Source: Candidatus Gottesmanbacteria bacterium (GTDB taxonomy: Bacteria; Patescibacteriota; Microgenomatia; UBA10105; UBA927). Taken from it: a stretch of 64,000 bases of DNA. Of the stretch, positions 6,668 through 47,529 are shown piece by piece (position 1 is the first letter of the stretch; the number at the start of each line of letters is the position of its first letter). Location: the NCBI GenBank assembly GCA_023245355.1, contig JAHFKN010000002.1, positions 136,460 to 200,459 on the forward strand. The letters are read 5' to 3'. Below the pieces are notes generated by a model that had not been told where the DNA came from, did no database searches, and saw nothing but the letters and a program-made list of their open reading frames with translations. The translations under genes and the position numbers were made by a program.

Positions 6668-6675
6668 CAGGCATA

Positions 6676-6760: not shown

Positions 6761-6768
6761 CCCTTATT

Positions 6769-7218: not shown

Positions 7219-7226
7219 AAGTATAT

Positions 7227-7751: not shown

Positions 7752-7788
7752 TCACGGCCCGCCGTTTTGGTGTACAATACTTTCACTC

Positions 7789-7860
7789 GCGCCCATAGTT
7801 CAATGGATAGAATAGGAGCTTGCGGAGCTTCTGATACAGGTTCGACTCCTGTTGGGCGTA
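7789..7860 (+). tRNA. tRNA-Arg(GCG), tentative isotype
   Basis: Acceptor GCGCCCA/TGGGCGT with a G1-U72 wobble, D arm TAGTTCAATGGATAGAAT, anticodon stem GGAGC/GCTTC with loop TTGCGGA, T loop TTCGACT, A73. Confidence 0.7.
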
Positions 7861-7865
7861 CTCGT

Positions 7866-8279
7866 ATGACGATAGCCATTTGCGGAAGTCTCACGTTCCA
7901 CGCTGACATGCGTAGTGTCCAGGAAACGCTTACCAAATTGGGACACAAGGCGATTGTTCCTAAAAGCCTGCGCCTTATAGAGCATGAAGGGTTTCAAAAA
8001 CCGAAAACCGTTTCCGAGCGTCTGAAAGCGGAAGCCAAATACGATTTCATCCGCGAGCATTTCCGTGCAATTGAATCTTCTGATGCGATTCTGGTGGTAA
8101 ACCCTGCTCATCACGGGATTTCCGGGTATATCGGCGGAAACACATTTCTGGAAATGGGAGTTGCGTTCTATCTTCAAAAACCAATCTATCTTCTCAACCC
8201 CGTGCCGTCGATGGAGTATGAACTGGAACTTGCCGCCATGCATCCGGTCGTTCTGAACGGTGAGCTGGCGCGGATTTAA
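7866..8279 (+). CDS. nucleoside 2-deoxyribosyltransferase-like protein
   Basis: MTIAICGS N-terminus and YIGGNTFLEMGVAF matching the catalytic-Glu motif S/GxG(T/V)xxE(L/M)GxA of the NDT superfamily. The track ORF from 7767 overlaps the tRNA. Confidence 0.7.
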   Translation: MTIAICGSLTFHADMRSVQETLTKLGHKAIVPKSLRLIEHEGFQKPKTVSERLKAEAKYDFIREHFRAIESSDAILVVNPAHHGISGYIGGNTFLEMGVAFYLQKPIYLLNPVPSMEYELELAAMHPVVLNGELARI

Positions 8280-8324
8280 TTTTTCGTGTCCTGAACTGAT
8301 TTGCAGTATAATTGGCGGACTGAT

Positions 8325-8413
8325 GGAAAGGTGCCGGAGCGGCTAAACGGCCAGGTCTCGAAAACCTTGGGGGTCTTACAAGGCCCACGGGAGTTCAAAT
8401 CTCCCCCTTTCCG
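8325..8413 (+). tRNA. tRNA-Ser(CGA), type II
   Basis: Acceptor GGAAAGG/CCTTTCC, anticodon loop CTCGAAA, long variable arm, T arm GGGAG-TTCAAAT-CTCCC, G73. Confidence 0.8.
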
Positions 8414-8430
8414 CCCGAGAGTTAGGTATT

Positions 8431-8850
8431 ATGACAATTACTATTTGCGGTTCCATGCAATTTCATAAAGAGATGGCCTCAGTCCGTGACCAGTTGCTGG
8501 CTCGCGGATTCAAGGTGTTTGTGCCGGGAGAACTGGACGATATTCACAAAAACGAGTCCTACATGGATACGGATGAGGAGCGGATTACCGTGAAAATCGA
8601 ATACGATTTCATCCGCGAGCATTTCCGCAAAATTGAGCAGGCGGATGCAATTTTGATCCTCAATTACGAGAAAAAGGGAATCCCCGGATATATCGGCGGA
8701 AATACGTTTTTGGAAATGGGATATGCGTTCGGATTGGGGAAAAAGGTGTATTTGCTGTACGGGGTTCCCGACATGGATTATAAAACGGAAATGTTTGCAA
8801 TCCAGCCTGTCGTGATAGACGGGGATTTGTCCAGGATTCCACTTGCTTAA
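8431..8850 (+). CDS. nucleoside 2-deoxyribosyltransferase-like protein (paralog of 7866-8279)
   Basis: MTITICGS N-terminus and YIGGNTFLEMGYAF. It shares the YDFIREHFR block with the upstream paralog. Confidence 0.7.
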   Translation: MTITICGSMQFHKEMASVRDQLLARGFKVFVPGELDDIHKNESYMDTDEERITVKIEYDFIREHFRKIEQADAILILNYEKKGIPGYIGGNTFLEMGYAFGLGKKVYLLYGVPDMDYKTEMFAIQPVVIDGDLSRIPLA

Positions 8851-10931
8851 GGCTCCGTATCCGTGCCGTCGCGTTTTGTCTGATCTATAAAGGCCCGTAC
8901 AACAACCCCCCCGGCGTCTTTGAGAATCAGCCGCCCGCCGTTTATCCCTTTGAGAATCTCATTTTTTGTTTTTTCCGCGCCGCTTACCCCGTCATAATTC
9001 GTCGTCGAGTAATAATAGGTGCAGCATTCCGAATATGCAGTATTTTTGAGGTCTCCGATTTCTACAATATTATTGGGGTGTATCTCCCGAAAGAGCGCAT
9101 CGGTGAACGTCACGCCGGAAAAAGAGGCGAGAGCAACAACGTTCGGATCTGTTTTGGGATGGGGTATGACCCCGATGACAACGGGCCGGTCGGACAGGGT
9201 GTTGCCGACAATTCTCTGGTGGATGGCCACTTTGGGCTGACGTCCGTCAAACACCGTTTCCAGAAGCGATAGCAACGCTTCCTCTTTGGATTTGTCTATC
9301 TTCTCCGGTGTCACCCAAACGGCATACCCGGCGGTATCCTGCGCCAGCGGTTTTTTGTCGCTGGCATGTATCGTGCCGCGGCGGGCGGGTATGACGGTAG
9401 TTTCCAGTACGCGTGTTTCGGTAAGATCAGGAATCATATAGGACCATTGCCAGGGGATCCGCCATCTGCCGTCTTCGCGTACAAACGGGATGGAGACATT
9501 CCCGGTAAACGACCCCAGTTGCCGGGTAAAAAACGTCACGGTCGCTTTCAACGTCTGGGGAGAGGCAAAGCCCGACGGGAGCGCTCCTTCGGGAGTAATT
9601 TCTATATGTTCTATTTCTCCCTGCGCCATGGTGGTCAGTCCGAACCTGCGGAATGTTTCCCTGTCCGCCCGGGTGCGGGACGACATCGTCGTGTCTTCAT
9701 ACAGGTCGGTAAAAAACATATGCTCCATGTTGTATATGACCTGGGCGGCTGTCGCGCGCGGTGTGGTAATAAGCCTGGGGATCGTTGATGTTACGTTGAC
9801 CAATAGTAGTGCAAATACAAGGATGAACATGGTGCGTTTCGGAAGACGCATCAGGGTCGCGCCGGCAGCAATATAGAGAAGCGGCAGTACTGCGACAAGA
9901 TACCGCGTCCAGAACGGAATGATCGTATAGATGCCAATGATGAGACTCAGTGTGAAGAAAAGTATCCCCCACTTCTGATCCTTATTCCGCGAGCGGACCC
10001 ATGCCGCTATAGCCGCCAGAGAACTAAACAGCAGTACGGCCCAGGAAGGACTCCATTCGGCGGCCCGTTCCCACCCATGAGAAAACAGATTCTGATAGTA
10101 ACCGGCGATAAGTGTGGTGATACTGCTGCCCCATGTGGGGGAAATATTGCCGTGGCTGTAAAAGGATATCATCCATTTTTGTAGTTTTAACCAATCGATG
10201 AATGAGTATCCGTGCAGAAAATATCCGACGTACGGCAGGAGATATCCGGCAAATGCACACAGAAGAAACACGGCAATATCACGGATATATTTGGTTTGTT
10301 TCCATAGGTAAACGATGCCGGCCATAACAAGAACCGGGGCAAGAAGAGGGACTTTCGTTTCGGAAAACAGCCCGAGCAACAGTCCGCAAAGGGCAGAAAC
10401 AACTATCCGGCGGTTTTTTGTGAGCGAAGTCACCTGAAACATCACAATCAGGAAAAGCATGAGAAACAGCGCCTGAAGTGCGTCCATCATGGTCAGCGTG
10501 GCCTGATTGATGATGAGCGGGTCGGTGGCCAGCAGGACTGCAATAATAAGCGCCGGCAGCGTCTGCCGGAACACTATTTTCGACAGCACATACGTCGATG
10601 CGATGAGAAATATTGTGGTAAGAAACCCGAATATGTGCGCGTTGCCAAACAGCAGGATACATATGCCGATAAGATATTTACCCAGCGGCGGTACCTCGGC
10701 ATTCAGGGTGATCGGGTCTCCGCCGCGGATGAGCCGATACCCCTCATACATGTACAGGCCGTCATCACCGATGGTGCGTTGGGAAAGCGGAAGTTTCCAT
10801 TGTGACTGCTCATACTTGTCTTTCCAGTAAGTTTCATCGAAACGGGAAAAGAGAAGCGCTCTGTTCCAGTAGGTTACGAAGCTAAGGTACAGCAGCAGGA
10901 AAATGAAAAGAAATGCGGGCAATCGGCGCAT
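8847..10931 (-). CDS. GT-C fold (GT39/ArnT/PMT-like) membrane glycosyltransferase with a C-terminal extracytoplasmic domain
   Basis: About ten TM helices N-terminally with ArnT/PMT-like loops. The C-terminal roughly 270 aa is soluble and resembles a PBP dimerisation-type domain. Confidence 0.6.
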   Translation of the reverse strand: MRRLPAFLFIFLLLYLSFVTYWNRALLFSRFDETYWKDKYEQSQWKLPLSQRTIGDDGLYMYEGYRLIRGGDPITLNAEVPPLGKYLIGICILLFGNAHIFGFLTTIFLIASTYVLSKIVFRQTLPALIIAVLLATDPLIINQATLTMMDALQALFLMLFLIVMFQVTSLTKNRRIVVSALCGLLLGLFSETKVPLLAPVLVMAGIVYLWKQTKYIRDIAVFLLCAFAGYLLPYVGYFLHGYSFIDWLKLQKWMISFYSHGNISPTWGSSITTLIAGYYQNLFSHGWERAAEWSPSWAVLLFSSLAAIAAWVRSRNKDQKWGILFFTLSLIIGIYTIIPFWTRYLVAVLPLLYIAAGATLMRLPKRTMFILVFALLLVNVTSTIPRLITTPRATAAQVIYNMEHMFFTDLYEDTTMSSRTRADRETFRRFGLTTMAQGEIEHIEITPEGALPSGFASPQTLKATVTFFTRQLGSFTGNVSIPFVREDGRWRIPWQWSYMIPDLTETRVLETTVIPARRGTIHASDKKPLAQDTAGYAVWVTPEKIDKSKEEALLSLLETVFDGRQPKVAIHQRIVGNTLSDRPVVIGVIPHPKTDPNVVALASFSGVTFTDALFREIHPNNIVEIGDLKNTAYSECCTYYYSTTNYDGVSGAEKTKNEILKGINGGRLILKDAGGVVVRAFIDQTKRDGTDTEP

Positions 10932-10989
10932 AGGGTTGACCCCATTCTAGCAGAGAGCGGGAAACGGCGGTATAATACGCATGGAACTC

Positions 10990-11061
10990 GCTTCCGTAGT
11001 TCAATGGATAGAATGCGGCCCTCCGAAGGCTGTGATGGCAGTTCGACTCTGCCCGGGAGTA
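10990..11061 (+). tRNA. tRNA-Arg(CCG)
   Basis: Same D arm as the tRNA at 7789. Anticodon stem CGGCC/GGCTG with loop CTCCGAA, T arm GGCAG-TTCGACT-CTGCC, G1-U72. Confidence 0.75.
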
Positions 11062-11081
11062 CTTAGGGTAAACATGCACGT

Positions 11082-11678
11082 ATGAAAGATTCGAAACGGT
11101 TAACCAATTTAATCTATGAAGCCGCCAACGTGAAGCGGATGCTCCGGACGGGGTGGCAGCGCCTGGGTGATAACGAAGAAGGCGTAGGGGAACATTCATT
11201 TATGACAGCCGTCATCGCCTATCTTCTGGCCAAGCAGATAAACGATCAGAACGAATCCGGCAGGAAGGTTTCCATGGAAAAAATTCTTATTATGAGTATT
11301 TTTCATGATTTTCACGAAGGGCGGACCGGGGAAATGGACAAGGTTGCTAAACTGTATATGACACGGCATGAGGATAAAGCAAATATAGACATATTTGAAG
11401 GTATCGACGATGAATTATTAGCTCAGCTCAATGAATATGAAGCCAAAAAATCCCTGGAAGCGCAGGTGGTGTACGAGGCAAACGTCATCGCGTTCGGCGT
11501 AGAGTGCAAAATCCTGATGGAAAAGGGCAATACCCACGCGAAGGAATGGATGGACGCCAATTCGTTGCGCGTCAGGCTTCCTGAGTCGGTCGAGCTCATG
11601 ACTGCGTTAGCTATAACCGATTCACAGGATTGGTGGAAAGATATCCGGGAAGCGATCCACGAAGAATTTGCCAAATAA
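11082..11678 (+). CDS. HD-domain phosphohydrolase (YfbR-like 5'-nucleotidase family)
   Basis: HS...FHDFHEGRTGE metal-binding HD motif, 198 aa. Confidence 0.75.
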   Translation: MKDSKRLTNLIYEAANVKRMLRTGWQRLGDNEEGVGEHSFMTAVIAYLLAKQINDQNESGRKVSMEKILIMSIFHDFHEGRTGEMDKVAKLYMTRHEDKANIDIFEGIDDELLAQLNEYEAKKSLEAQVVYEANVIAFGVECKILMEKGNTHAKEWMDANSLRVRLPESVELMTALAITDSQDWWKDIREAIHEEFAK

Positions 11679-11681
11679 GTA

Positions 11682-12611
11682 TTACTCTCCCTGCGAAAAA
11701 AGTGCTGCCGCTGTTTTTTTGGTAATATGCTGACGGGTGGCAAACAGCACGCCGGTGATAATCAGCGCTGATCCCAGTACATACGTGAGGGAAAGCCGCT
11801 CTCCGAGAACAACCGCATTGATGGCAACGCCTACGACCAGCTGAATATATTCCTTGAGCGAGGCGGTTGAAGCTGACACATGCTGCACTCCCCACTGGAA
11901 GAGAAAAAATGTCGTTACCGTAATGCCGACTGCCGCAAACAGTAACACACCCATATATGTCGGGACATGAAGCGCCGGTGATAAAAGAGACTGTCCGGCA
12001 ACAGCGGATGCAAGGGTTGCCGCAGCCGTGACGACAAATATATTGATAGACGTAGAGAGCACGGGGGAGAAATCGCCCTGTGAGAGGATCCGCCGGGAGA
12101 AAATAATATACAGTGTCCAGCAAAGCAGGCTGCCGACCATCAGAAGATTGCCCAAAATACTCCCGCCCGTGCCGGTTCCTTTTTCAATCACGGGAAGCAG
12201 GACGATACATAAAGCACCCACCAATCCGATCAGGATGCCCGTGAGTTTGTTTTTTCCGATCGGTTCCTTGATGAAAAACGGGGAAAGCAACGCGACGCTA
12301 ATCGGAATGGCGGTGCCCAGGATACTTCCTGTATTTGCCGTGGTAAGGGAAAGACCGGTGTAGTAAAACAGGATATTCCCTGCATTGAATATGCCCAGCG
12401 GAAGGAGAGAGTGGAAATATCCTTTGGGTTTTTTCACCCGGAGAAAAAATGGGAGAATGATAAGCGATGCCAGGATAAACCGGTGGCTTGCGGCGACAAA
12501 CGGGGTAACTTCCATAAACAGCAGTTTGGATACAGATCCTGCGCTCGCCCAGAGGATTGCGGAAACAAATATTGCAAAAAGCGCTTTGTGACGCACTGTC
12601 ATACAATGCAT
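11682..12611 (-). CDS. EamA/DMT family transporter
   Basis: About 10 TM helices with duplicated EamA-like halves, 309 aa. Confidence 0.75.
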   Translation of the reverse strand: MHCMTVRHKALFAIFVSAILWASAGSVSKLLFMEVTPFVAASHRFILASLIILPFFLRVKKPKGYFHSLLPLGIFNAGNILFYYTGLSLTTANTGSILGTAIPISVALLSPFFIKEPIGKNKLTGILIGLVGALCIVLLPVIEKGTGTGGSILGNLLMVGSLLCWTLYIIFSRRILSQGDFSPVLSTSINIFVVTAAATLASAVAGQSLLSPALHVPTYMGVLLFAAVGITVTTFFLFQWGVQHVSASTASLKEYIQLVVGVAINAVVLGERLSLTYVLGSALIITGVLFATRQHITKKTAAALFSQGE

Positions 12612-12657
12612 TATAGCACCGGAAACAGCAGGAAAGATGGTATAATCAGAACCTATT

Positions 12658-12740
12658 GGAGGAGTGGCCCAGTGGCTACGGCATACGCTTGGAAAGCGTA
12701 CGGGAGCAATCCCTCGCAGGTTCGAGTCCTGTCTCCTCCG
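12658..12740 (+). tRNA. tRNA-Ser(GGA), type II
   Basis: Acceptor GGAGGAG/CTCCTCC, anticodon stem TACGC/GCGTA with loop TTGGAAA, long variable arm, T loop TTCGAGT, G73. Confidence 0.85.
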
Positions 12741-21495: not shown

Positions 21496-23199
21496 ATGCC
21501 CCCTAGGGTGTGCAGCTGCCCTATGAATATATCCGATGAATTGTTGCTTCAGATTATCACACAGGCCCGCATAGCCACAGAAGCAGAGGCAAAAGTGGTC
21601 ATGGATTTTGCGAAAGCCTCCGGAATTTCGCTTGCCGAGGCGCTCATTCAGAAAAATGTCATTACCGACGGCAAGTTGGGAAAACTAGTTGCCGAGCATT
21701 TCGGCGTTCCGTTTGTTAATCTGGCGGAAGTTACGATTCCTGAAGATGTCTACCGGGTGATACCGGATAAGTTTGCCAAAATTCATAAACTGCTGCCGTT
21801 TGCGCGTGATGCAACAGGGCTCAAGGTAGCAACTGCCGACCCCAAAGATGCGCAGGTTATTGCTTCCCTTGAGAAAAAAACGCGTCAGAAAATCATTATT
21901 CATTATGCGACGGAGCGGGATATCCGAAACGCGCTGCAGCTTCATAAGCGCGACCTGCAGACCGTTTTTGCGGACCTTATGAAGCGCTATAAACGCGAAG
22001 ATGAGGCACCGATTTCCGCAATCGTAGATTTGCTGCTCCACAGCGCCGTTGATGAAACGGCTTCCGACATTCACATCGAGCCGGAGGAATCCGATTCGCT
22101 GGTGCGGTACCGGATAGACGGCATTCTCCATGACGTATTACATTTTTCGAAAACCATGCATAGTCAGGTGGTGAGCCGTATCAAAGTGCTGGCGAATCTC
22201 CGTACGGACGAACATTCGGCTCCGCAGGACGGAAAAATCAGGATAAAGCATGATGAGCAGTCCGTAGATATCCGTATTTCCATCATCCCCATGATCGAGG
22301 GTGAAAAAATCGTCATGCGTCTTCTGGTGTCTCACTTCAAATTATTCAACTTCAGTGACCTGGGGATGGAAGAAGCGTCCGTTGCGAAAATTACGGCAGC
22401 GCTTCACAGGTCGTACGGCATGATTTTATCGACCGGGCCGACCGGCAGCGGAAAAACGACATCCATTTATGCGATGCTTAAAACGCTCAATGTCCGGGAG
22501 AAAAATATTACGACGATCGAAGATCCGGTGGAATACCGGATTAAGGGGGTAAACCAGATTCAGGTAAACTCGAAAACAAATCTGACGTTTGCAAACGGAC
22601 TGCGTTCCATTCTCCGGCAGGATCCGAATATTATATTTGTCGGGGAAATCCGCGATGCGGAAACGGCCGGCATTGCTATCAACGCTGCTTTGACAGGTCA
22701 TTTGGTCGTATCGACACTGCATACAAATGATGCTGCGACATCGCTTCCCCGGCTTACCGATATGCACGTTGAGCCGTTTTTGGTAGCTTCCAGTGTCAGC
22801 TTGATCGTCGCGCAGCGGTTGGTACGGAAAATTTGCGAATACTGCCGTATTTCAACAACCATTACCGAGCCGGAGCTGCAGAAAAGCCTGCCGGCGTCAG
22901 TCATCAGCAAACACTATATCCCGACCGGGGAAAACAAGGAAATCCGGGTATACAAAGGTCAGGGATGCAAAAACTGCAGATTTACCGGGTATTCAGGACG
23001 GGTAGGTATATTTGAGGTACTGGAGGTCAGTAAGGAAATACGCAAACTGATAACAGAACGGAAAGACAGTGACATGATCGTTGAACAGGCAATCGCAGAA
23101 GGCATGACAACTATGCTGGACGATGGTCTGATGAAAGTGTCCAAAGGCGTTACCACCATAGAGGAGATTCTCCGTGTGACCAGAGTAGAAACATTATGA
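21496..23199 (+). CDS. pilB: type IV pilus/T2SS assembly ATPase PilB/GspE
   Basis: T2SE N-terminal domain, Walker A GPTGSGKTT, and a C-terminal tetracysteine motif CEYC...CKNC. The start may be the ATG at 21523. Confidence 0.85.
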   Translation: MPPRVCSCPMNISDELLLQIITQARIATEAEAKVVMDFAKASGISLAEALIQKNVITDGKLGKLVAEHFGVPFVNLAEVTIPEDVYRVIPDKFAKIHKLLPFARDATGLKVATADPKDAQVIASLEKKTRQKIIIHYATERDIRNALQLHKRDLQTVFADLMKRYKREDEAPISAIVDLLLHSAVDETASDIHIEPEESDSLVRYRIDGILHDVLHFSKTMHSQVVSRIKVLANLRTDEHSAPQDGKIRIKHDEQSVDIRISIIPMIEGEKIVMRLLVSHFKLFNFSDLGMEEASVAKITAALHRSYGMILSTGPTGSGKTTSIYAMLKTLNVREKNITTIEDPVEYRIKGVNQIQVNSKTNLTFANGLRSILRQDPNIIFVGEIRDAETAGIAINAALTGHLVVSTLHTNDAATSLPRLTDMHVEPFLVASSVSLIVAQRLVRKICEYCRISTTITEPELQKSLPASVISKHYIPTGENKEIRVYKGQGCKNCRFTGYSGRVGIFEVLEVSKEIRKLITERKDSDMIVEQAIAEGMTTMLDDGLMKVSKGVTTIEEILRVTRVETL

Positions 23200-24248
23200 A
23201 ATCAGAAAACCTTACGCTTCCCAATGCGGAGAAATTGGGATTATTAAGTAATTTGTCGACCATGGTCAACGCAGGACTGACGCTTGCGGAAGCCGTCGAG
23301 TCACTGCTTGAAGATTCCGTCGGAAATTTAAAGCAGGTCTTAACGGGTATTCAGGCAGAAATTACGCAGGGTAAACCGCTGCATGCGGCGTTGTCGAAAT
23401 ACCCACGGATATTTGACCCGGTTACGGTTGCAATTATTAAGGCAGCGGAAGAATCCGGAACGATTGATGTCGTGCTTAAGGATGTAAAAAATACCGTAAA
23501 GAAAGATATAGAATTTTCGGATAAGATACGCTCGGCGTTAACGTACCCTGCCGTGATTCTCGTGGTATTTTTCGGCGTGCTGATTCTGTTGCTGACATTT
23601 GTCATTCCGAAAATTTCCGAAGTATTTTTGCGCCTGCGCGTACAGTTGCCGCTTCCGACGCGCATCCTTATGGCGCTATCCGATCTTATTCTTCACTATA
23701 CGGTGCCGACGCTTCTCGTGTTGGTCGGAACCATTGCGCTGCTTATTTTGTTGTATAAAAAACAGCGGAAGCTGTTTACCAATACGTTGTTAAACCTGCC
23801 GTATATTTCATCTATTGCCCGCCAAATCGACCTTACCAGGTTTTCGCGGAGCATGTATTTATTGCTCATTTCTGCAATCCCTCTCTATAGCGCGTTAGAG
23901 TTAACGCAGGCGGTCGCATTTAAGCGGGAAGTGCGGGAGGCAATCGCCCGCGCCCGCGAATATGTCGGGGGAGGCAAACGCCTGGCGGACGGTCTGCGCG
24001 GCCAAAAGACGATTCCCTCGCTTATGGTAAAAATTATAGAAGTCGGGGAGCGGAGCGGAAGTCTGGACAAATCCATGGAAGATTTATCGGAATACTTTGA
24101 TTATCAGGTCACGACGACGCTTCAATATATGATGACGCTTCTGGAACCGATTATTCTGGTGCTTGTCGGTGTCGTCGTGGGGGGAATGATGATGGCGATT
24201 ATCGCGCCTATTTATAATTTAATAGGCCAGGTCGGGGAATTCCATTAA
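23196..24248 (+). CDS. pilC: type IV pilus platform protein PilC/GspF
   Basis: GspF-type domains with three TM segments. Overlaps the pilB stop codon. Confidence 0.8.
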   Translation: MKSENLTLPNAEKLGLLSNLSTMVNAGLTLAEAVESLLEDSVGNLKQVLTGIQAEITQGKPLHAALSKYPRIFDPVTVAIIKAAEESGTIDVVLKDVKNTVKKDIEFSDKIRSALTYPAVILVVFFGVLILLLTFVIPKISEVFLRLRVQLPLPTRILMALSDLILHYTVPTLLVLVGTIALLILLYKKQRKLFTNTLLNLPYISSIARQIDLTRFSRSMYLLLISAIPLYSALELTQAVAFKREVREAIARAREYVGGGKRLADGLRGQKTIPSLMVKIIEVGERSGSLDKSMEDLSEYFDYQVTTTLQYMMTLLEPIILVLVGVVVGGMMMAIIAPIYNLIGQVGEFH

Positions 24249-36326: not shown

Positions 36327-37157
36327 TTACTCTGCAACTTTTGCGGCCTCAGGTTTCTCTTTTTTGAGGAATACCCACCATGTCATAAATATGACATATG
36401 CGCCGTACATGAGGATCTGTGCTATATCCATCGTTTGTGTAATGCCAAAAACGGCTTTTATCATGTCGCCTGCAACTGTCGCTTTCGCAGGGATAAACGA
36501 AAGGGTAATCTTGGTCAGTTCCGGCACTACTCCTGCCTCTGCAAATTCATGTATACCCCTGGCAAACAGACCGGCTGCAAAGAGAATAAGCAGCGCACTT
36601 GTCGCGCGGAACGCATAACGAACCGGAAGTCTGAGGGTTGCCGCGAACAGTCCGAGTGAAAGAAGCAGGCCGCCAAAAAGTCCGCCGGTAAATCCCAATA
36701 ATATTTCTCCGGGATCGGATGAAAAAACGATAGTCGACAAAAAAAGTACGATTTCAAATCCTTCACGGAACACAGCGGTGAAGGTGAGCCAAAACAGCCC
36801 CCTTTGTTCCTCTTGTTCCAGTGTTTTGCGGATTGTTACCAACAAATGCGTCTTGTAGCGGGCAAAATATGTATGGAGGAAAAATACTGCCCAGGTGATA
36901 AATATTGCCGACGTTGCCATAAGCATTCCTTCGATAAATTCTTCTATTTTTCCCGAGTACACATGTTGTATTGTCACTCCGAACATACTTGCAGCAGCAA
37001 GAAGTACCATGCTGACTATTGCAGCAAAAGCCGTCGCCATCCAAACGGTCCGGATACCCTTTTTCTGGTGTAGCTTTGTGAGAATTCCTAATATGGTAGC
37101 TACGATAAGGGAAGCCTCGATGACTTCACGCAGCGTAATAAGAAAAGATGCAACCAT
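36327..37157 (-). CDS. FTR1/EfeU family iron permease
   Basis: Two RExxE motifs (TLREVIEAS and FREGFEIVLF) in a 7-TM protein. Confidence 0.75.
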   Translation of the reverse strand: MVASFLITLREVIEASLIVATILGILTKLHQKKGIRTVWMATAFAAIVSMVLLAAASMFGVTIQHVYSGKIEEFIEGMLMATSAIFITWAVFFLHTYFARYKTHLLVTIRKTLEQEEQRGLFWLTFTAVFREGFEIVLFLSTIVFSSDPGEILLGFTGGLFGGLLLSLGLFAATLRLPVRYAFRATSALLILFAAGLFARGIHEFAEAGVVPELTKITLSFIPAKATVAGDMIKAVFGITQTMDIAQILMYGAYVIFMTWWVFLKKEKPEAAKVAE

Positions 37158-39213: not shown

Positions 39214-40707
39214 ATGCCGCTGAATCGAAACATACTGCTTCTTTTGTTGTTGCTTCTTTTGTCGGCGGGCGTTGTTACATTGCGGCAGGCGGATGGATTG
39301 AAAGGGATCCCGGCGTGCAAAGGATGTAATGTTATTGTTATATCGCTGGATCAGGTGAGGGCAAAAAGCCTGCCGTGTTTTGGGTATGCTCAGAATACTG
39401 CGCCGAATTTGTGTCGGCTTGCCGCGAAGTCCCACGTATTTACCAATGCCTATGCAACGGCATCACGGACGCTTGATAGTCATTTTTCCATGGTGACGTC
39501 GTTATATCCCGGCACGCATACCATGACGCTGCCGTATTCGAGTAAGTTACCCGCTGATGTCCCCACCATTGCAGCACGTATGAAACAAGAAGGATACATG
39601 ACGTATTTTTTCGGACCGGATTGGGATCCGCATTTGCCGCTTACGAGGGGATTGGAACGGGGGTTCGATAAGACGTTTGCCGCAGATGATCCGAAGCGCT
39701 GGATAGAGGCGATGGATTCTCTCGCAACGCTTTCGGGATCACTGAAACAACCGGCGTTCTTTTTTATGCATACCTATATGGCGCATGAGCCCTATATACC
39801 TGAGCCGGAAGACTTGAAATTGTTTTATGACGGGCCGGATAGGAAACAGATGAACTATGAAGAATTATGCGCGTTTACCTATACACGGCTTACGAGTATT
39901 CATCCGGAGCTGGCCGTTTCCCCGGCAATTCCCATGTATTGTGACAAATTAACGGCATACCAAGAGAAAAATTCCGGGAGTTTTAATGATTTCAATGATA
40001 TTTATACCGTGTTTAACGATAAGTATTGGCATCAGTTTGACGATATGCCCAAAGCAGAAAAAGCCAGGTATACGCATGCGCTGTATATAGCGCAGATTCA
40101 TGAGCTGGATACGGAGTTAGGGAAATTTTTTACGTATCTTGAGCAGAAAAAATTGATGGATAACACAATGATTATCATCGTCGGGGATCAGGGTGATGAA
40201 TTTTTTGAGCATGATTCATATTCACACGCGTGGAGCATGTATAACGAAGTGCTGCATGTGCCGTATATCGTCTACGTGCCGGGGACTGCGGCGAGCCGCT
40301 CAGATAAGCTGGTATCCCTCGTGGATATTATGCCGACCGTATTTCAGGTGCTCCGTAAAAACCTTTCCGTTCAGGTTGCCGGTATCGGCGTATTTTCTTC
40401 TACAAAGCACCGCATGATTATTGCGGAGCACGTGAGCGACGGGGCGCTTGCTCTCCGGACGGACGCATATACATTAATCCGGCGCATTGCAGGGGAGTCG
40501 GTCAAGATAGAATTGTTTGATATCAGAAATGATCCGGGGGAACAAATAAATATCAGCAAGGATAACGATACCGTCGTTGAGTCGATGCTTCGTGAATATA
40601 AGGAATTGAAAAAAAGTTTTCCTGCCTATTCAAATACAGCAGACCCGCTTCCTACATGGCTCAAAGAAGAAGACAAAAAACGACTGTTGGAAAGCGGGTA
40701 TTTTTAG
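39214..40707 (+). CDS. sulfatase-like hydrolase/transferase (alkaline phosphatase superfamily)
   Basis: N-terminal signal/TM, then NVIVISLDQVRAKSLPCFGY...TNAYATASRTLDSH... and a conserved C-terminal IIIVGDQGDEF block. Confidence 0.65.
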   Translation: MPLNRNILLLLLLLLLSAGVVTLRQADGLKGIPACKGCNVIVISLDQVRAKSLPCFGYAQNTAPNLCRLAAKSHVFTNAYATASRTLDSHFSMVTSLYPGTHTMTLPYSSKLPADVPTIAARMKQEGYMTYFFGPDWDPHLPLTRGLERGFDKTFAADDPKRWIEAMDSLATLSGSLKQPAFFFMHTYMAHEPYIPEPEDLKLFYDGPDRKQMNYEELCAFTYTRLTSIHPELAVSPAIPMYCDKLTAYQEKNSGSFNDFNDIYTVFNDKYWHQFDDMPKAEKARYTHALYIAQIHELDTELGKFFTYLEQKKLMDNTMIIIVGDQGDEFFEHDSYSHAWSMYNEVLHVPYIVYVPGTAASRSDKLVSLVDIMPTVFQVLRKNLSVQVAGIGVFSSTKHRMIIAEHVSDGALALRTDAYTLIRRIAGESVKIELFDIRNDPGEQINISKDNDTVVESMLREYKELKKSFPAYSNTADPLPTWLKEEDKKRLLESGYF

Positions 40708-40722
40708 GTAGTTCTGCCTGTA

Positions 40723-42681
40723 TCAGTATTCCCAATACGGATAAAGCGCAGACATAGCTGACGGTGTAGTTATCGTTACATCTCCGACGGAAAGCGCCGC
40801 ATCATTGTCGCGGAATATATTTTTCCGTATGCGGACCAAAGAAGGATGTGCGGGATCGAGGGAAAGCGCGACACGATTCCGGTTCAGCGTATTGGATATG
40901 ATCATCGTATTATCGTGCCGTGTGGCGTTGGCCTGTGTGTCGGTGTCAGCTTCTTCCGGCGCCCCCTGAAGTTCAATACCAATGTCGGATTCTCCTGCAA
41001 AATTATGTATGAATGCGTTATTGATAGTGGGCAGCTGGCGCGTAAACGCGAGAATTGCAGGGCCGCTGTTTTTGGAGGATGTATTGTCCGCAACACGGAT
41101 GCCGCTTGCGTTGCTGATAAATATACCCATCGCGTATCCGGGTTTTCCTGTCGTCGCTTCGTGACAAAATGACCAGCCGAGATTATCGCTCACGGTATTG
41201 TGGTGTATGGCAGTATTTACAAACGACCCGCCGAATATTTTTATGGCCGCACACCCGGACGCATTCTGACACGCGTGTGTCACCGTATTTCCGGCGATTG
41301 AGATATGCTTTGAAGCCGTATTTGTTTTTTCGTACCCGGTTATATGTATGCCGTAACTGGCTACGTCGGACACTGAATTATGTTCTATGCGGATTCGGCT
41401 TGCCCTGCTGATGAATATTGCGGGTTCGTTAAACGGAAAACCGGATGTTGTAATGGACGACCGGACAATCCGGATATCCGATACGGTGTCCACGCCTGTA
41501 GGCGCGCCGATAAACGATATCGGCGATTTGGAAATACCGGATAGATCCGCATGGTCAACTACTACATGCCGGAGCAGGCCGTCATTTTGCATAGTTGCCC
41601 GGATGCCGTCTCCCGAAGATGATATGTGCATATTGAGCAGCCGGATTGCTTCAAGATGACGGTTCGGCGCAAAGACGACTGCGCCGGTTACCGTATTAAA
41701 ATAATCGTGATCATTTATTGCAGTAACCGCAATGCCGTCGAGTTCGACGGCAGATCTGCTAAGAAGTATGCCTATATTCCGTTTTCCTATCTCGATAGGG
41801 AGTCCTTTCGGATTTTCCGGTTCAAGCGGCCACAGATACAGCGCGTGAGTTGTGCTGTCATAAAAGTACTCCCCGGGTGTGTCCAAAAGACCCAGTGCAT
41901 TGTCGACAATATATTTGGAATATCCGCTGCTGCCTGTTTCCTGACGTCCGTAGGTGAGCGCGCCGATCGGTTCATCCATGGTAAGCGTTCCGTGTATGGA
42001 ATCGTGTGCGGTTACGGTTCTGGCATATAAAAAGGTTCCGCAGCGCTGTGCGCCGTCTAGTATAAGCGCCCTGCCGCCTTTCATGTCGGGGGCGCCGATT
42101 AGATGAGTGCGGTCAGCAAGATCGGATTGTGTGGGTCCTTCTCCGGTTGCCTGCCACCAGAATTCATGAAATTTATCCGGGTTTTCCACCTGTACGTTCG
42201 GACTCCGTGCCCGGGTGAGTGATTGTTGTGAGCCGTCTTTCAACGTTTCATTTATGATGGTAGGAGATTCATCCCAGGGAAGAGAGGCTACGAATACATG
42301 GTGTCTGACCGGTTCCGGCAGACCGGGACATGTTGATGCGCTGCATGCCACCCACTCCAAGAGTGATGATGGTTCCGCGCCTGTAAGTACTACCTGCTCA
42401 TTCCCTTTGGTTTCCGCCTGCAGCCGGAGCGTCCGGCCGGTTCCCGCGGAGGGTGATATGTGCAGTGTTTCTCTGTAGATGCCCGGCAAAATATGCACCG
42501 TGCCGCCGTTTCCGGCCAACCGGATGCCCTGCTGTATGGATTGAACGGGATGCGACCGTGTACCGGTTTCGGTGTCGTTTCCTTTCGGTGAGACGAACAC
42601 GTGGGGTTGCCCGGGCATGAGAAGCAGGATGCTGATACTAACGGCAAAAAGGATTGCTATTCCGGTTCGTCTCGTGATCAT
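40723..42681 (-). CDS. secreted right-handed parallel beta-helix repeat protein
   Basis: Signal peptide and many repeats of the form NxxxxNxVxxN/GIxI, pectate-lyase-like. Confidence 0.6.
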   Translation of the reverse strand: MITRRTGIAILFAVSISILLLMPGQPHVFVSPKGNDTETGTRSHPVQSIQQGIRLAGNGGTVHILPGIYRETLHISPSAGTGRTLRLQAETKGNEQVVLTGAEPSSLLEWVACSASTCPGLPEPVRHHVFVASLPWDESPTIINETLKDGSQQSLTRARSPNVQVENPDKFHEFWWQATGEGPTQSDLADRTHLIGAPDMKGGRALILDGAQRCGTFLYARTVTAHDSIHGTLTMDEPIGALTYGRQETGSSGYSKYIVDNALGLLDTPGEYFYDSTTHALYLWPLEPENPKGLPIEIGKRNIGILLSRSAVELDGIAVTAINDHDYFNTVTGAVVFAPNRHLEAIRLLNMHISSSGDGIRATMQNDGLLRHVVVDHADLSGISKSPISFIGAPTGVDTVSDIRIVRSSITTSGFPFNEPAIFISRASRIRIEHNSVSDVASYGIHITGYEKTNTASKHISIAGNTVTHACQNASGCAAIKIFGGSFVNTAIHHNTVSDNLGWSFCHEATTGKPGYAMGIFISNASGIRVADNTSSKNSGPAILAFTRQLPTINNAFIHNFAGESDIGIELQGAPEEADTDTQANATRHDNTMIISNTLNRNRVALSLDPAHPSLVRIRKNIFRDNDAALSVGDVTITTPSAMSALYPYWEY

Positions 42682-42817
42682 AACGATACAGTATGAGTAT
42701 ACGGTACCAATGGGTATGATAACATCAGGGTTTCCCTGACCGGTCCGGTACCGTTTATTATCTTAATCTGGTCTTAATGCGGTATTGTATATAGTTTGTC
42801 TAAAGGAGGTACATTCT

Positions 42818-43276
42818 ATGATGGAATTACCAGTTATTAATTTTTCTGAAGCATTCGGAACCAAGCTGGCGGTCGGCCTGCTTACATTTATCACGGCTGC
42901 TACCAGCGGAGTAGCAGGGTACAAAATTGTCAAAACGGTTTCCGCGCAAACACCGCCGAAAGCAGAAGCGGTTGAAGTGCCCAAAGCAGATACGGAAGCT
43001 GAAGCAGAGGGAACCGTAAGTACGGGGGTACAGATAACACCGACACCGACCGCAAAGCCTGCGACGACGCAGGTTTCAGGGTCCCTATCCGTGAAGCCAA
43101 CATCCGGTACCGTTTCCGGCCGGTTATCCATAAGCGGGGATACGGACGAAGATGACGACGATAAGAAAGAGTATGAAATGGAAACAAAAGAGAGCGAAAT
43201 ACAACAGCACGACGAAAGCAAAACGGAGGAGAAGACGGAAACCGAAACGCACGTTGAAGACGGACTCACCCGGTAA
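42818..43276 (+). CDS. hypothetical secreted acidic protein
   Basis: RBS AAAGGAGG 8 nt before ATGATG. N-terminal TM, Thr/Pro-rich linker, acidic DEDDDDKK C-terminus. Confidence 0.5.
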   Translation: MMELPVINFSEAFGTKLAVGLLTFITAATSGVAGYKIVKTVSAQTPPKAEAVEVPKADTEAEAEGTVSTGVQITPTPTAKPATTQVSGSLSVKPTSGTVSGRLSISGDTDEDDDDKKEYEMETKESEIQQHDESKTEEKTETETHVEDGLTR

Positions 43277-43291
43277 ACCCGCAATTACGGT

Positions 43292-43669
43292 ATGAACGAC
43301 GGAAAACTAACGGGTTCCGGGAGTGTATTAGTATCACACAACAAACGGCAACCGCTGGCATTGGGTTTGGGTCTCTGTATCGCACTTGTCGGGCTCGGTT
43401 TGTTTGAGCTGCACACACCGGTGGTGCAGCCGGGAATAAAAACGATGGGCGCCCGGGAGCTGTCCGGGTTTGACGGGACAGATCCGGATAAACCGATTTA
43501 TCTTGCATTAGACGGATTTGTATACGACGTCTCTGCAGGGAAATCTTATTATGTAGCCGGCGGAACATATCATTTTCTCGCCGGCAAAGATTCCTCGGAG
43601 GAGCTGCACATTGCGGGAGCGGGTATTATCAAACGGAAATACCCGGTTATCGCAACGTTTACAAAGTGA
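43292..43669 (+). CDS. cytochrome b5-like heme-binding domain protein
   Basis: ELSGFDGTDPDKPIYLALDGFVYDVSAGKSYYVAGGTYHFLAGKD matches the cyt-b5-like/steroid-binding fold. N-terminal TM. Confidence 0.6.
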   Translation: MNDGKLTGSGSVLVSHNKRQPLALGLGLCIALVGLGLFELHTPVVQPGIKTMGARELSGFDGTDPDKPIYLALDGFVYDVSAGKSYYVAGGTYHFLAGKDSSEELHIAGAGIIKRKYPVIATFTK

Positions 43670-43672
43670 CGT

Positions 43673-44971
43673 ATGAATAAATCTGCCGGCTGGTTTGGTA
43701 TTTGGAGCGTCGTGTTTATTACCGTCAATCTGTATTTTTTTTCCAAAAGTGACGTCTCGGTACTGATGACCCGGCCGTTTCTTTCTTTGGGTCAGGTTAC
43801 CGGGCTTGTGGGCATCATATTGCTTTCCCTCTCATTTATACTCGCTCTCAGAAGTGCGTTTATAGACAAATTATTCGGCGGACTGGATAAATCATATACG
43901 GCGCATCACATGACGGGAGGGATCGGCACAATGCTGACCGTTCTTCACCCCATGTTTTTTGTCCTGCAGTCGCTTCCTAATACACAGTCAGCTCTCCGGT
44001 TTATCGTGCCGGATATTCGTAATCCCGCGTACCTTACCGGAATGATTGCGTTGAGTATTCTCATCGTTCTGATTGTTTTGACACTGTATGTCAGATTGCC
44101 GTATCACATCTGGCGGTCGCTGCATCAATGGATGGGAGCGGTTATGATAAGTTCAGGAATTCATGCGGCGTTAATTTCCAGCGATGTATCCAGATATTTG
44201 CCGCTCCGCATATGGGTTTTAGGATTTTCCGGGGCCGCGCTCCTTGCTGCATTGTATATGCGGTTTATTTACCCGATTCTCAAATTCCGGCACGTATACG
44301 AAGTACTTTCCATTGAAAGGACAGGCGATATGTTTGATATCCGGCTGAAGCCTAAGGGAAGGACGATGAAATTTTTTCCGGGGCAGTTTGCGTTTCTCTC
44401 CGTTCCGGGCGTGTTCGAAAGCGGAAACGGGCATCCGTTCAGTATCGTATCCCATCCTTCGGAGGGCATTCTGCGGTTCGGAATAAAAATATCCGGTGAT
44501 CACACTCTGCGGCTCCGGGAAGTAAAAAAGGGAGACACCGTGTATGTGCAGGGTCCATACGGCAGGTTGGCGGAGCCGTACTTTATCCAAAAGAGCCGGC
44601 CGGTTGTGTGTGTGGCGGGAGGTATCGGAATCACTCCGTTTTTGGGGTTACTGCGTCAGCATGTGGACAGCAAGTCGGAGCAGCCGCTTACCCTCATTTA
44701 CAGTGTCCGGTCCACATCCGAAGCGGTATATCATGATGAAATTCAATCGCTTGCGCTGTGTTCTTCGGCTGTTTGTTACCGTTTGCATGTTACAAAGGCG
44801 GAGGGCAGGATAACTGCGGAAGCTATTACCCGTATTTCTCCGAACGTATTTGCGGCAAACATATTGCTCTGCGGGCCGGAAGCAATGATGATCGGTCTTC
44901 GGGATCAGTTTATGCGCCGCGGAGTCCGCCAGGCGCGCATTCATTACGAAAATTTCGCGTTTATCGGATGA
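43673..44971 (+). CDS. ferric reductase/NADPH-oxidase-like flavocytochrome (FRE/NOX family)
   Basis: Six-TM ferric-reductase domain with paired His, FAD-binding HPFSIVS and NAD-binding GGIGITPF motifs. Confidence 0.75.
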   Translation: MNKSAGWFGIWSVVFITVNLYFFSKSDVSVLMTRPFLSLGQVTGLVGIILLSLSFILALRSAFIDKLFGGLDKSYTAHHMTGGIGTMLTVLHPMFFVLQSLPNTQSALRFIVPDIRNPAYLTGMIALSILIVLIVLTLYVRLPYHIWRSLHQWMGAVMISSGIHAALISSDVSRYLPLRIWVLGFSGAALLAALYMRFIYPILKFRHVYEVLSIERTGDMFDIRLKPKGRTMKFFPGQFAFLSVPGVFESGNGHPFSIVSHPSEGILRFGIKISGDHTLRLREVKKGDTVYVQGPYGRLAEPYFIQKSRPVVCVAGGIGITPFLGLLRQHVDSKSEQPLTLIYSVRSTSEAVYHDEIQSLALCSSAVCYRLHVTKAEGRITAEAITRISPNVFAANILLCGPEAMMIGLRDQFMRRGVRQARIHYENFAFIG

Positions 44972-45399
44972 AACATATTATCAAAACCGGTGTCGCGCTT
45001 TTTGTGGTTCAGTATCTGGTTCTTGCCGGTGTCGTTTTCGGCATCGGAGCGCACGTGCCGGCGGCAGAAGAAACACCGTCGATCCCCACACCGGGCATTT
45101 CGGCGACTCCACGGCCCGCCAAGACGCCGGTTAGAGCTGTAGCCCGGGAAAACACTGCTCCTGCCGGGGAAGCGTCTGCTCCTCCTGTCGAACCGACGGC
45201 AGTTCCCAGCGCCCAGCCGCCCGCTGCTGACACAGGGTGTATTATCACGGTACACGGTACACGGTATAATGTGACCGAGTTCCGTATTCAGCATAGCGGA
45301 GGAGATATATTTACCTGTGGCGCCGATATGACCGCTGTATTTGATTCGCAGCACTCTATGCGCACGCTTCAGAGAATGGCACCTCTCGCTGTAAATTAA
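44968..45399 (+). CDS. secreted Pro/Ala-rich protein with C-terminal cytochrome b5-like domain
   Basis: Signal/TM, PA-rich linker, then CIITVHGTRYNVTEFRIQHSGGDIF (HPGG-like motif). The track ORF from 44758 overlaps the upstream gene and is trimmed. Confidence 0.55.
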   Translation: MKHIIKTGVALFVVQYLVLAGVVFGIGAHVPAAEETPSIPTPGISATPRPAKTPVRAVARENTAPAGEASAPPVEPTAVPSAQPPAADTGCIITVHGTRYNVTEFRIQHSGGDIFTCGADMTAVFDSQHSMRTLQRMAPLAVN

Positions 45400-45404
45400 C
45401 ATTT

Positions 45405-46082
45405 TTGTATATGCGTATTCTTTTAGTCGAGGACGAACAAAAAATAGCGGATAATCTCGTGACTATGCTCAATACCCGGGGGTTTGGTGTGGACCGGGTA
45501 GCCGACATTGCCGGAGGATACCGGAAAGCAGCTGATACGGAGTACGATCTGGTGATTATTGACCGGGGGCTTCCTGACGGAGACGGTGTTGTATTGGTGC
45601 GCCGGCTGCGCGGGGAAGATAATGCAGTGCTCATTCTGCTTCTGACGGCCCGCGGGCAGGCAGAAGACGTCGTCGAAGGGTTAAATGCGGGGGCGGATGA
45701 TTATCTAATCAAGCCGTTTCGGTTTTCTGAACTGGATGCCAGAATCCGTGCATTACTGCGGCGGGTAACACCCTCCCCCGTGCAGCCGGTTATTGTTCTT
45801 GCGGATCTTACCATCGATACAAACAGCAGGACTGTCCGGCGGCGGAATACGTCTATTCCGTTGGCTCCGAAAGAATATGCGCTGCTGGAGTATCTGGCGC
45901 GGAACAAGGGGGTGGCAATGGAGCGCATGAATATACTGGAACATGTATGGAATGAACATACTGATGAATTTTCGCAGACTGTTGACGTGCACATCCGGTA
46001 TTTGCGGAAAAAAATCGATGACACATACAAAAAAAAGCTTATCCGTACCGTGAAAGGCAAAGGATATATGCTATGCGAATGA
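45405..46082 (+). CDS. OmpR-family response regulator
   Basis: Receiver domain (LLVEDE...D...LPDGDG) plus winged-helix trans_reg_C domain. Confidence 0.85.
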   Translation: MYMRILLVEDEQKIADNLVTMLNTRGFGVDRVADIAGGYRKAADTEYDLVIIDRGLPDGDGVVLVRRLRGEDNAVLILLLTARGQAEDVVEGLNAGADDYLIKPFRFSELDARIRALLRRVTPSPVQPVIVLADLTIDTNSRTVRRRNTSIPLAPKEYALLEYLARNKGVAMERMNILEHVWNEHTDEFSQTVDVHIRYLRKKIDDTYKKKLIRTVKGKGYMLCE

Positions 46083-47479
46083 CATTAAGACAGCAAACCG
46101 TCATCGGGTTAAGCATCGGGTTTGCCGTAGTCCAGATCATGACGGCGCTGATTTTGGCCAGGCTTTCCTACACGCTGACGGAACGGGATGTCCGGGCATA
46201 TCTGACCCGTGAGGCGCAGGATCTTGTGCGCACGCAGTTCCTTATAACAAATCAGACACTGACGTTCCGGCAGGACAGCGAAGGAAATACGGTGACGGAC
46301 CGGTTAAGAAAACGCGGATTTTCGGTACTTGTCGTGAACCCCGACGGCACGGCAAAAAATGTGTTCGGTATTTACCGGACGTTTATTACCGAAGGTGAAG
46401 ACGCACGCGGTGTAGCCGGAATCCGGGAGGTGACTGAACGCGTATCGGACGGATATTCCCACCTCACACTGCCGACGCATGAGCAATTCGAAACATATAC
46501 ATTTCCCCTTGTGTCTTCGGGTAAAACAGTCGGGTTCGTACAGGTAGCACGGGAAGAGCGGTCGCTGTCTGATATGGTGAGCAGTTCCTCTCTCATTATG
46601 CTCGCGCTTATTCCGTTGTCTATACTTTTCGGAGTGTTTTTGTCGCTTTGGATTGTGCGCAGGGCACTGTCTCCTCTTGAGCGGCTCACCCATGCCGTGC
46701 GGCGTATTCCCGACGGGGTATTTCCGGAACATATTCCGGCAATTTCAGATACGTCGCCGGAGTATACGATTCTGGCCACAGTGATTAACAGACTGTTGTC
46801 GTCACTGACGGCAATATTTGCGCGTCACAAGGAATTTATCGGAAACGTTGCGCATGAATTGCGCACGCCGCTTACGAAAGCGATCACGGCTGTTGATGTG
46901 ATGCTCATGAAAGATACGTCCATGTCTTCGGCGAGTAAGTCGGCGTTGCAGTCAATACAGGATGATTTGTTCGGCATAAGTGCTTCGATAGACGGTCTCA
47001 TGTCCGTATCGCGGCTCTATGAAGCAGATCAGTCAGGAATGATGGAAACGGATGTTTCCGTTCTCGTAACGCATATTATGAACGTGCACGATGACGCGAT
47101 TTCAAAAAAACACATTCATATACGGGTTGATGCCGCACATACGGAGATGCTGCCGATGCCGCCGGCAATTGCAATGTCGCTTCTGGGAAATATTATCGGG
47201 AACGCCATAAAATATTCACATGACAATGGCGAAATACTCATACGCGCCCGGTCAACCAAACAGGAAATGCATATAGAGGTTTCCGATGCCGGAATCGGCA
47301 TGTCCGACGAAGTCCGTCAGAGGATATTTGACCGGAGATACCGCGGAACCGCGTCATCTCACGGATATGGTGTGGGCATGGCACTGGTCCGGCGTATCGC
47401 GGATATGTGGCATATAGGAGTAACGGTACAAAGCCATGAGGGAAAAGGTACTACGGTTATGCTTGCCATAAAAAAGTAG
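46073..47479 (+). CDS. sensor histidine kinase
   Basis: Two TM helices, H-box AHELRTPL, N-box LLGNIIGNAIKYS, G-boxes DAGIGM and GYGVGMALV. Confidence 0.8.
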   Translation: MRMTLRQQTVIGLSIGFAVVQIMTALILARLSYTLTERDVRAYLTREAQDLVRTQFLITNQTLTFRQDSEGNTVTDRLRKRGFSVLVVNPDGTAKNVFGIYRTFITEGEDARGVAGIREVTERVSDGYSHLTLPTHEQFETYTFPLVSSGKTVGFVQVAREERSLSDMVSSSSLIMLALIPLSILFGVFLSLWIVRRALSPLERLTHAVRRIPDGVFPEHIPAISDTSPEYTILATVINRLLSSLTAIFARHKEFIGNVAHELRTPLTKAITAVDVMLMKDTSMSSASKSALQSIQDDLFGISASIDGLMSVSRLYEADQSGMMETDVSVLVTHIMNVHDDAISKKHIHIRVDAAHTEMLPMPPAIAMSLLGNIIGNAIKYSHDNGEILIRARSTKQEMHIEVSDAGIGMSDEVRQRIFDRRYRGTASSHGYGVGMALVRRIADMWHIGVTVQSHEGKGTTVMLAIKK

Positions 47480-47529
47480 GGGATGCCCTGCGTGCCACAA
47501 TCCGGCCGCATGGGGTATACTGGATTCAT

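Follow-up and report, generated by a model that had tools for sequence, protein, structure and literature searches.

A SpNOX-like reductase operon with translationally coupled cytochrome b5 in a Candidatus Gottesmanbacteria genome, a probable electron-export module

A 64,000-nucleotide stretch of a Candidatus Gottesmanbacteria genome (GenBank assembly GCA_023245355.1, contig JAHFKN010000002.1, positions 136,460 to 200,459 of the forward strand; hereafter the window, to which unprefixed coordinates refer) encodes a NOX/ferric-reductase-like flavocytochrome surrounded by small cytochrome b5-type proteins and followed by a two-component system. Six genes are tightly packed between 42818 and 47479, separated by 15, 3, -4, 11, and -10 nt. 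An earlier note on this DNA, made from the letters alone, had listed these elements, and all of them were recovered on the plus strand where it had placed them. The six open reading frames (ORFs) probably constitute one operon encoding a regulated electron-export module:

42818-43276, plus strand: ORF A, 152 amino acids (aa), acidic protein, with an AAGGAGG Shine-Dalgarno sequence 8 nt upstream
43292-43669, plus strand: ORF B, 125 aa, Cyt-b5 protein, MAPR-like (cytb5MY)
43673-44971, plus strand: ORF C (pFre), 432 aa, SpNOX-like flavocytochrome, starting 3 nt past the stop of ORF B
44968-45399, plus strand: ORF D, 143 aa, mini cytochrome b5, its start overlapping the stop of ORF C (ATGA)
45411-46082, plus strand: response regulator of the OmpR family, 223 aa when counted from the ATG at 45411, with the TTG at 45405 as an alternative start
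46073-47479, plus strand: sensor histidine kinase with Pfam HAMP, HisKA, and HATPase_c domains

ORF A is preceded by a divergent intergenic region of 136 nt, and promoter and terminator scans of positions 42400-47700 gave nothing exceeding the shuffled expectation. Directly upstream (39214-42681) are a sulfatase-family gene and a divergent gene for a 652-aa right-handed beta-helix protein (DUF1565/NosD-like), which were kept beside the operon only in its two closest relatives (L082 and L083; L numbers denote related loci).

ORF C comprises a six-transmembrane (TM) ferric-reductase domain and an FNR-like domain for flavin adenine dinucleotide (FAD) and NAD(P)H, as identified by Pfam (Ferric_reduct 3e-14, FAD_binding_8 2e-7, and NAD_binding_1 1e-10), and it matched the structures 8qt6 and 8qq7 of Streptococcus pneumoniae NOX (SpNOX; PMC5676040, PMC11564096, and PMC11031084) over its full length (E = 5e-29) with the four histidines aligned. 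These results bear out the earlier assignment of a six-TM, FAD/NAD(P)H-binding enzyme of the FRE/NOX family. The histidine spacing of ORF C, H78-x13-H92 and H151-x12-H164, aligned with H69/H83 and H129/H142 of SpNOX, where H69/H129 bind the inner heme and H83/H142 the outer heme (Dubach et al., 2024; PMC11564096). By this alignment the ligands of ORF C are H78/H151 for the inner and H92/H164 for the outer heme, such that both histidine pairs, whose absence from the TM domain would have spoken against a bis-heme enzyme, were present in full. Across 30 ORF C homologs, H78, H92, and H164 were invariant and H151 was conserved in at least 90%. The FAD motif HPFSI at residue 254 and the NAD(P)H motif GIGITP at 317, within a retained GGIGITPF, were identified along with an invariant F428 that aligned with the FAD-stacking Phe of SpNOX. 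ORF C therefore shares with SpNOX the six TM helices and dehydrogenase domain free of regulatory domains, the histidine spacing, the HPFS and GGIGITPF motifs, and the C-terminal Phe. It differs in having a genetically coupled b5 partner, no partner being known for SpNOX, and in a stretch following the outer-heme ligand, SSDVSRxxPLR, which was invariant and clade-specific among ORF C relatives, mapped to the outer E-loop by SpNOX topology, and was found neither in SpNOX nor in proteobacterial relatives. Since the SD[VIT]S loop motif follows the clade of Candidate Phyla Radiation (CPR) bacteria and DPANN archaea and not strictly the presence of a b5 neighbour, it is regarded as no more than a candidate docking site. 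In one related locus (L037:5953-7238), lying on an 840-kb contig labelled 'Gammaproteobacteria' but CPR-like, the reductase was split into two overlapping ORFs, representing either a frameshift pseudogene or an assembly error.

ORF C also carries every sequence feature used to filter bacterial NOX enzymes, i.e., HPFSI- and GIGITP-type motifs and two His-x12/14-His pairs on separate TM helices holding two b hemes (Hajjar et al., 2017; PMC5676040), and SpNOX itself uses O2 and makes superoxide in vitro (PMC5676040). Both observations favour a true NADPH oxidase, in which the outer heme would reduce O2 to superoxide or H2O2 in signalling, attack on a host or competitor, or O2 scavenging, with the b5 proteins as modulators or side branches; that reading is weighed below against the behaviour of SpNOX and the distribution of the b5 partner.

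In the partner encoded by ORF D, residues 8-26 form an N-terminal anchor or signal, and a linker rich in Pro and Ala leads to a mini b5 domain at the C-terminus (residues 89-143). That domain has ~55 residues compared to the core of ~75-80, the N-terminal strand and helix being missing. It aligned with the heme domain of flavocytochrome b2 (3ks0, 1e-3) with both axial histidines matched, predicting H109 (in an HSGG motif) and H129 as the heme ligands, and C91, H109, C117, and H129 were invariant in nine homologs, the two cysteines forming the conserved pair C91/C117. The AlphaFold model had a pLDDT of 81-91 in the domain, and all of the top 50 Foldseek matches were classical cytochrome b5 (~60 columns at 2.1 Å, TM-score ~0.55 by target, E-values of 9e-3 or weaker, which are weak because the domain is shortened). 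Positive charges ahead of the single helix place the heme domain outside by the positive-inside rule. A Pro/Ala-rich protein with a cytochrome b5-like HSGG C-terminus had been described at this position, and the b5 domain with both histidine ligands was confirmed, the protein being either anchored or secreted.

ORF B, in turn, has a TM helix (residues 22-40) followed by a heme domain (residues 52-125), and the positive charges that precede this single helix likewise place the heme domain outside. Its sequence matches in the PDB were Arabidopsis MAPR (1t0g/1j03, 3e-13), PGRMC1 (4x8y, 4e-5), and archaeal cytb5M (6nzx, 2e-4), and the top Foldseek matches of its AlphaFold model (pLDDT ~95 in the domain) were MAPR and cytb5M structures in the same ranking. 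The cognates of PGRMC1 Y107, Y113, K163, and Y164 are Y87, Y93, K116, and Y117 in ORF B. For K116 and Y117 this is presumably so from the KRKY stretch as aligned with the PGRMC1 sequence and with 6nzx, the PDB alignment ending earlier. Y87, Y93, and Y117 were invariant in 45 ORF B homologs, with H94 and K116 conserved in at least 90%, and the putative axial ligand of the heme is Tyr93 or the adjacent conserved His94. No MIHIR insert was present between LHIAG and KRKYP, the domain being just 74 aa, and ORF B is consequently classed as MAPR-like (cytb5MY) and not as a MAPR protein. It thus shares the fold and heme-contact residues of eukaryotic MAPR (PGRMC1 4x8y and Arabidopsis MSBP 1t0g/1j03), its best solved matches, but lacks their defining insert and sits in a prokaryotic redox operon. 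Of the membrane-anchored cytochrome b5-like protein proposed for this position, the anchor and the b5 domain were found, whereas the heme site is of the MAPR tyrosine type and not classical bis-histidine. Between them the two flanking proteins retain the expected ligands, namely the MAPR tyrosines in ORF B and both b5 histidines in ORF D.

The tyrosine-type site of ORF B raises the possibility of a heme-acquisition device, in which ORF B would be a tyrosine-ligated surface receptor for ferric heme and reduction via ORFs C and D would loosen its grip on the resulting ferrous heme and free it for uptake, the cell depending on this imported heme for its own cytochromes. Bacterial heme-uptake proteins, NEAT domains and HasA among them, typically ligate heme through tyrosine. 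The heme tyrosines of PGRMC1 are conserved in ORF B, and Tamarit et al. (2021; bioRxiv 10.1101/2021.11.17.468889) point out that tyrosinate has a high affinity for Fe3+-heme and a low one for Fe2+-heme. This reading is nevertheless improbable: no heme transporter or heme-degrading enzyme was found in or beside the operon, and many reductase and b5 loci are without ORF B, making it an accessory and not a core component.

The hydrophobic anchor of ORF A (residues 17-35) is joined by a linker rich in Thr, Pro, and Ala to an acidic tail (DDDDKKEYEME...). The protein has 28 Asp/Glu compared to 14 Lys/Arg and gave no Pfam or NCBIfam match; NCBIfam likewise yielded no equivalog for ORFs B, C, and D. 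Jackhmmer searches started from the whole protein and, separately, from just residues 1-48 reached b5-carrying proteins at the same operon position. In these relatives a mini-b5, a clade-1-like b5, or the two together precede a similar acidic tail. The heme domain was missing in 17 of 45 family members including ORF A, a few of which are cut by contig ends. On this homology ORF A is a member of a family with an anchor, a b5 domain, and an acidic tail, its own heme domain apparently lost. The acidic protein anticipated here was therefore present, but its one N-terminal hydrophobic helix makes it probably anchored and not secreted as had been suggested.

Pfam domains of both downstream genes agreed with the predicted OmpR/histidine kinase pair after ORF D, the regulator containing Response_reg and Trans_reg_C. 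The top NCBIfam matches of the regulator were of the heavy-metal CopR/CusR type (203 bits) and HprR (174 bits), all below cut-off, and as regulator and kinase fell under every NCBIfam cut-off, assignment to a named regulon was impossible. Hydropathy identified two TM helices in the kinase (residues 10-28 and 174-192) around an outside loop of ~145 aa. HprRS controls msrPQ in E. coli. The HprR and CopR/CusR types among the best regulator matches, as well as the placement of the ORF C TM domain within the MsrQ/YedZ superfamily (Pfam PF01794), are in line with an MsrPQ-like repair function, in which the b5 proteins would feed an extracytoplasmic reductase encoded elsewhere under envelope oxidative or metal stress. 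Such a function is very unlikely, as no MsrP or other reductase gene was found in the cluster or in related loci and the regulator scored under every family cut-off.

Judged by its genes, the locus is a canonical member of the CPR operon of cytb5MY, pFre, cytb5-like, and two-component genes described in 2021. The CPR-specific operon of Tamarit et al. (2021) consists of cytb5MY, pFre, CBLA/CBLB, and a two-component system, with CBLA related to clade 1 and CBLB to clade 2, and was proposed to encode a membrane complex. The Ferric_reduct domain was reported in 1427 of 7645 CPR genomes, and the reductase and b5 genes were not seen together outside the CPR (Tamarit et al., 2021). A literature search found no later work on the cytb5MY/pFre operon type. 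The locus described here has the same gene set and order, including a MAPR-like b5 with the four PGRMC1 cognates and no MIHIR, an adjacent PF01794 reductase, an extra atypical b5 gene of clade-2 type (ORF D, which fits the CBLB type as matched by description), the regulator and kinase downstream, and a TM helix in all products but the regulator. It differs in that the window contains no CBLA domain of clade-1 type, ORF A being heme-less while its relatives in L004 and L116 carry such domains, and in that the reductase-b5 pair was here seen in DPANN archaea too, as well as in Gammaproteobacteria, where the b5 is fused to FMN_bind. The named close homologs of ORF C were all from the CPR (Shapiro-, Gottesman-, Woese-, and Daviesbacteria, Paceibacterota, and WWE3). 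The earlier note had called such a module unexpected in a small-genome fermenter; that expectation was not upheld, as membership in this operon type makes the module typical of small-genome CPR bacteria.

A WS6 genome and relatives that share 70, 67, 45, and 40% identity repeat the order ORF A-B-C-D-regulator-kinase. A total of 80 metagenome loci were recovered with the ORF B family, 21 of which have at least 5 kb on each side, and among these well-covered loci the reductase was present in 16, a mini-b5 in 18, and the regulator and kinase pair in 10. The consensus gene order across relatives was (b5)-B-(b5)-reductase-b5-regulator-kinase. Single-sequence phmmer searches of the 80 loci with ORFs B and D identified few neighbours, and wider pairing was revealed by hidden Markov models (HMMs) of the mini and classical b5 domains. 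With the latter, a membrane-anchored classical cytochrome b5 was found directly after the reductase in many further loci, with HPGG and HS motifs and a pair of conserved cysteines; a poly-Asp/Glu tail is frequent. These reductase-b5 pairs occur in Saccharibacteria, other CPR bacteria, and DPANN archaea, and in the cultured Gammaproteobacteria Nitrincola, Saccharospirillum, and Halomonas the b5 after the reductase is fused to FMN_bind domains. The b5 start overlapped the reductase stop (ATGA or GTGA) in 43 of 57 loci, most of the others having a gap of at most 10 nt, although the 57 include near-duplicates and the counts are not fully independent. Since this overlap extends to DPANN archaea and Gammaproteobacteria, the reductase and its b5 form a conserved core that reaches past the CPR. 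Pairs outside the CPR with a 4-nt ATGA overlap, also present in L066 and L079, include:

L008:5902-7679, a pair on a 486-kb DPANN contig that has an a/eIF5B-type gene, the b5 scoring 72 bits with Pfam Cyt-b5
L044:64-1469, a reductase-b5 pair
L058:5884-8372, a reductase-b5 pair

Sequence and structural homology establish the cofactor sites, the topology of ORFs B and D, the gene order, and the gene coupling, and on these grounds electrons are likely exported from NAD(P)H to external b5 proteins. In the proposed path, NAD(P)H in the cytoplasm would donate a hydride to the FAD of ORF C, and single electrons would then pass to the inner heme (H78/H151) and on to the outer heme (H92/H164), from where they would reach the b5 domain of ORF D, which is translationally coupled and tethered to the membrane on its outer side. 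ORF B, tethered alongside, could act as a second acceptor or a substrate carrier, the acidic tail of ORF A as a scaffold or cation binder, and the two-component system downstream would render the module inducible. The transmembrane electron-transfer architecture suggested previously is thereby supported by the SpNOX homology, the positive-inside topology of ORFs B and D, and the coupled synteny conserved across phyla. Potentials of b5-type hemes are ~0 mV compared to -320 mV for NAD+/NADH. Reverse flow from the outside to NAD+ was rejected on the thermodynamics of these potentials.

That the physiological acceptors are b5 proteins and not O2 is inferred from the behaviour of SpNOX together with the conserved coupling. 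In SpNOX, the outer heme is solvent-exposed, the canonical O2-binding site of NOX enzymes is absent, and cytochrome c is reduced directly, more rapidly than O2 and far more rapidly than Fe3+; the authors of that work doubt O2 as the physiological acceptor and, with MsrQ-MsrP as the analogy, suggest a protein acceptor yet to be identified (PMC11564096). In the clade of ORF C, the tethered and coupled external b5 would fit the role of protein acceptor. An NADPH oxidase offers no ready explanation for a coupled b5 partner that is conserved across phyla, and the close relatives of the reductase are almost all from CPR bacteria. For many CPR bacteria the habitat is low in oxygen, and their defences against reactive oxygen species are few. 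Taken together, a physiological NADPH oxidase is thus improbable, and electron export to b5 proteins is the preferred reading. This export also resembles MsrQ-like systems, in which reductases with the same domain pair, PF01794 fused to PF00175, relay electrons from the cytoplasm to a small extracytoplasmic carrier whose gene is adjacent; those reductases feed extracytosolic flavinylated carriers, are linked to iron transporters, and have a proposed role in iron assimilation (Meheust et al., 2021; PMC8238504). The carrier here is instead a heme b5 and not an FMN_bind protein flavinylated by ApbE, and as neither an FMN_bind nor an ApbE match was found in ORFs A, B, D, or the neighbouring genes, the module would work similarly without being a member of that group. 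The gammaproteobacterial relatives join both types of carrier, b5 and FMN_bind, in one protein.

The leading guess for the final substrate, made with low confidence, is ferric iron or ferric heme that the cell would assimilate. It draws on the tyrosine-type heme site of ORF B, the iron links of analogous systems such as the association of MsrQ-like systems with the VIT1 iron transporter (PMC8238504), and an FTR1 gene after the kinase in one related locus. The full module in that locus (L101:5279-11951) is followed directly by FTR1, and L147:5875-7414 kept only the MAPR-like b5 (ORF B) and FTR1, which compared to the related L101 suggests that the reductase core was lost through a natural deletion. 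The window itself encodes an iron permease:

36327-37157, minus strand: stand-alone iron permease of the FTR1/EfeU family (138 bits with the EfeU model, under its cut-off of 255)

Both RExxE motifs of the permease are present (REVIE at residue 10 and REGFE at residue 131). A NOX-family reductase and an FTR1-family permease with two RExxE motifs in one genome region recall yeast Fre1/Ftr1-Fet3, but the permease here lies 5.7 kb from the operon on the opposite strand, its proximity is not conserved, and no ferroxidase, EfeO, EfeB, or P19 gene was seen beside it.

Several observations weigh against the proposed export and its iron or heme substrate. Besides the distance and strand of the window permease, FTR1 occurred within ~6 kb of the module in just two of 164 other loci (L101 and L147), both of one lineage, and the link drawn earlier between the reductase and the permease is accordingly weak. 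Direct ferric reduction by SpNOX, the nearest enzyme to have been characterised, is slow (kcat 0.05 s^-1; Dubach et al., 2024), and some O2 reduction by the outer heme of ORF C may still occur. The Pfam Cyt-b5 scores of ORF B (27.7 bits) and ORF D (24.2 bits) barely exceed the cut-off of 23.7, although these borderline scores are backed by the PDB matches, the AlphaFold and Foldseek results, and the invariant ligand residues. The reductase was missing in five of the 21 well-covered cytb5MY loci, and an adjacent b5 gene was missing for some of its CPR and DPANN relatives. The topology of ORF A is ambiguous by the positive-inside rule, and the sensor loop of the kinase had no conserved His, Cys, or Met among 18 aligned orthologs and so offers no clue to the signal. 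Finally, the operon type is known from sequence analysis alone.

Elsewhere in the window, positions 56000-64000 have a GC content of 34-41% compared to ~49% in the remainder and carry genes for a Mrr-type restriction endonuclease and a Beta_protein (PF14350) along with an M78 peptidase/HTH gene; this region probably represents a defence or mobile island that was acquired. At 49856-50527 on the plus strand lies the gene for a bacterial SET-domain protein (PF00856, 3.5e-19) with a lysine-methyltransferase fold, uncommon in bacteria. A tmRNA gene (96.9 bits) was identified along with six tRNA genes at 4208-4626 and 6128-12740, and type IV pilus ATPase and platform genes (T2SSE/T2SSF) at 21496-24248.

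The locus itself is ordinary for its lineage, being one more example of an operon already described by sequence, to which the conserved overlap, the pairing beyond the CPR, and the ORF A family with its lost heme domain are added here. CPR bacteria are typically without respiratory chains, and the module is among their few membrane redox modules. No other prokaryotic setting is known for a tyrosine-type MAPR-like heme protein, and the operon thus bears on the origin of the PGRMC1 type. For the protein acceptor proposed in the SpNOX papers, the operon family supplies concrete candidates in the coupled b5 (ORF D) and the MAPR-like b5 (ORF B). A wider and speculative proposal, to which only a small probability is given, is that a reductase with a coupled b5 would be the natural form of prokaryotic NOX homologs, a protein-to-protein exporter that in the CPR powers a new type of heme or iron acquisition, with the tyrosine-ligated MAPR-like protein capturing, on the cell surface, ferric heme or iron that is discharged by reduction. 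If so, the ancestral function of the MAPR/PGRMC1 fold would be revealed.

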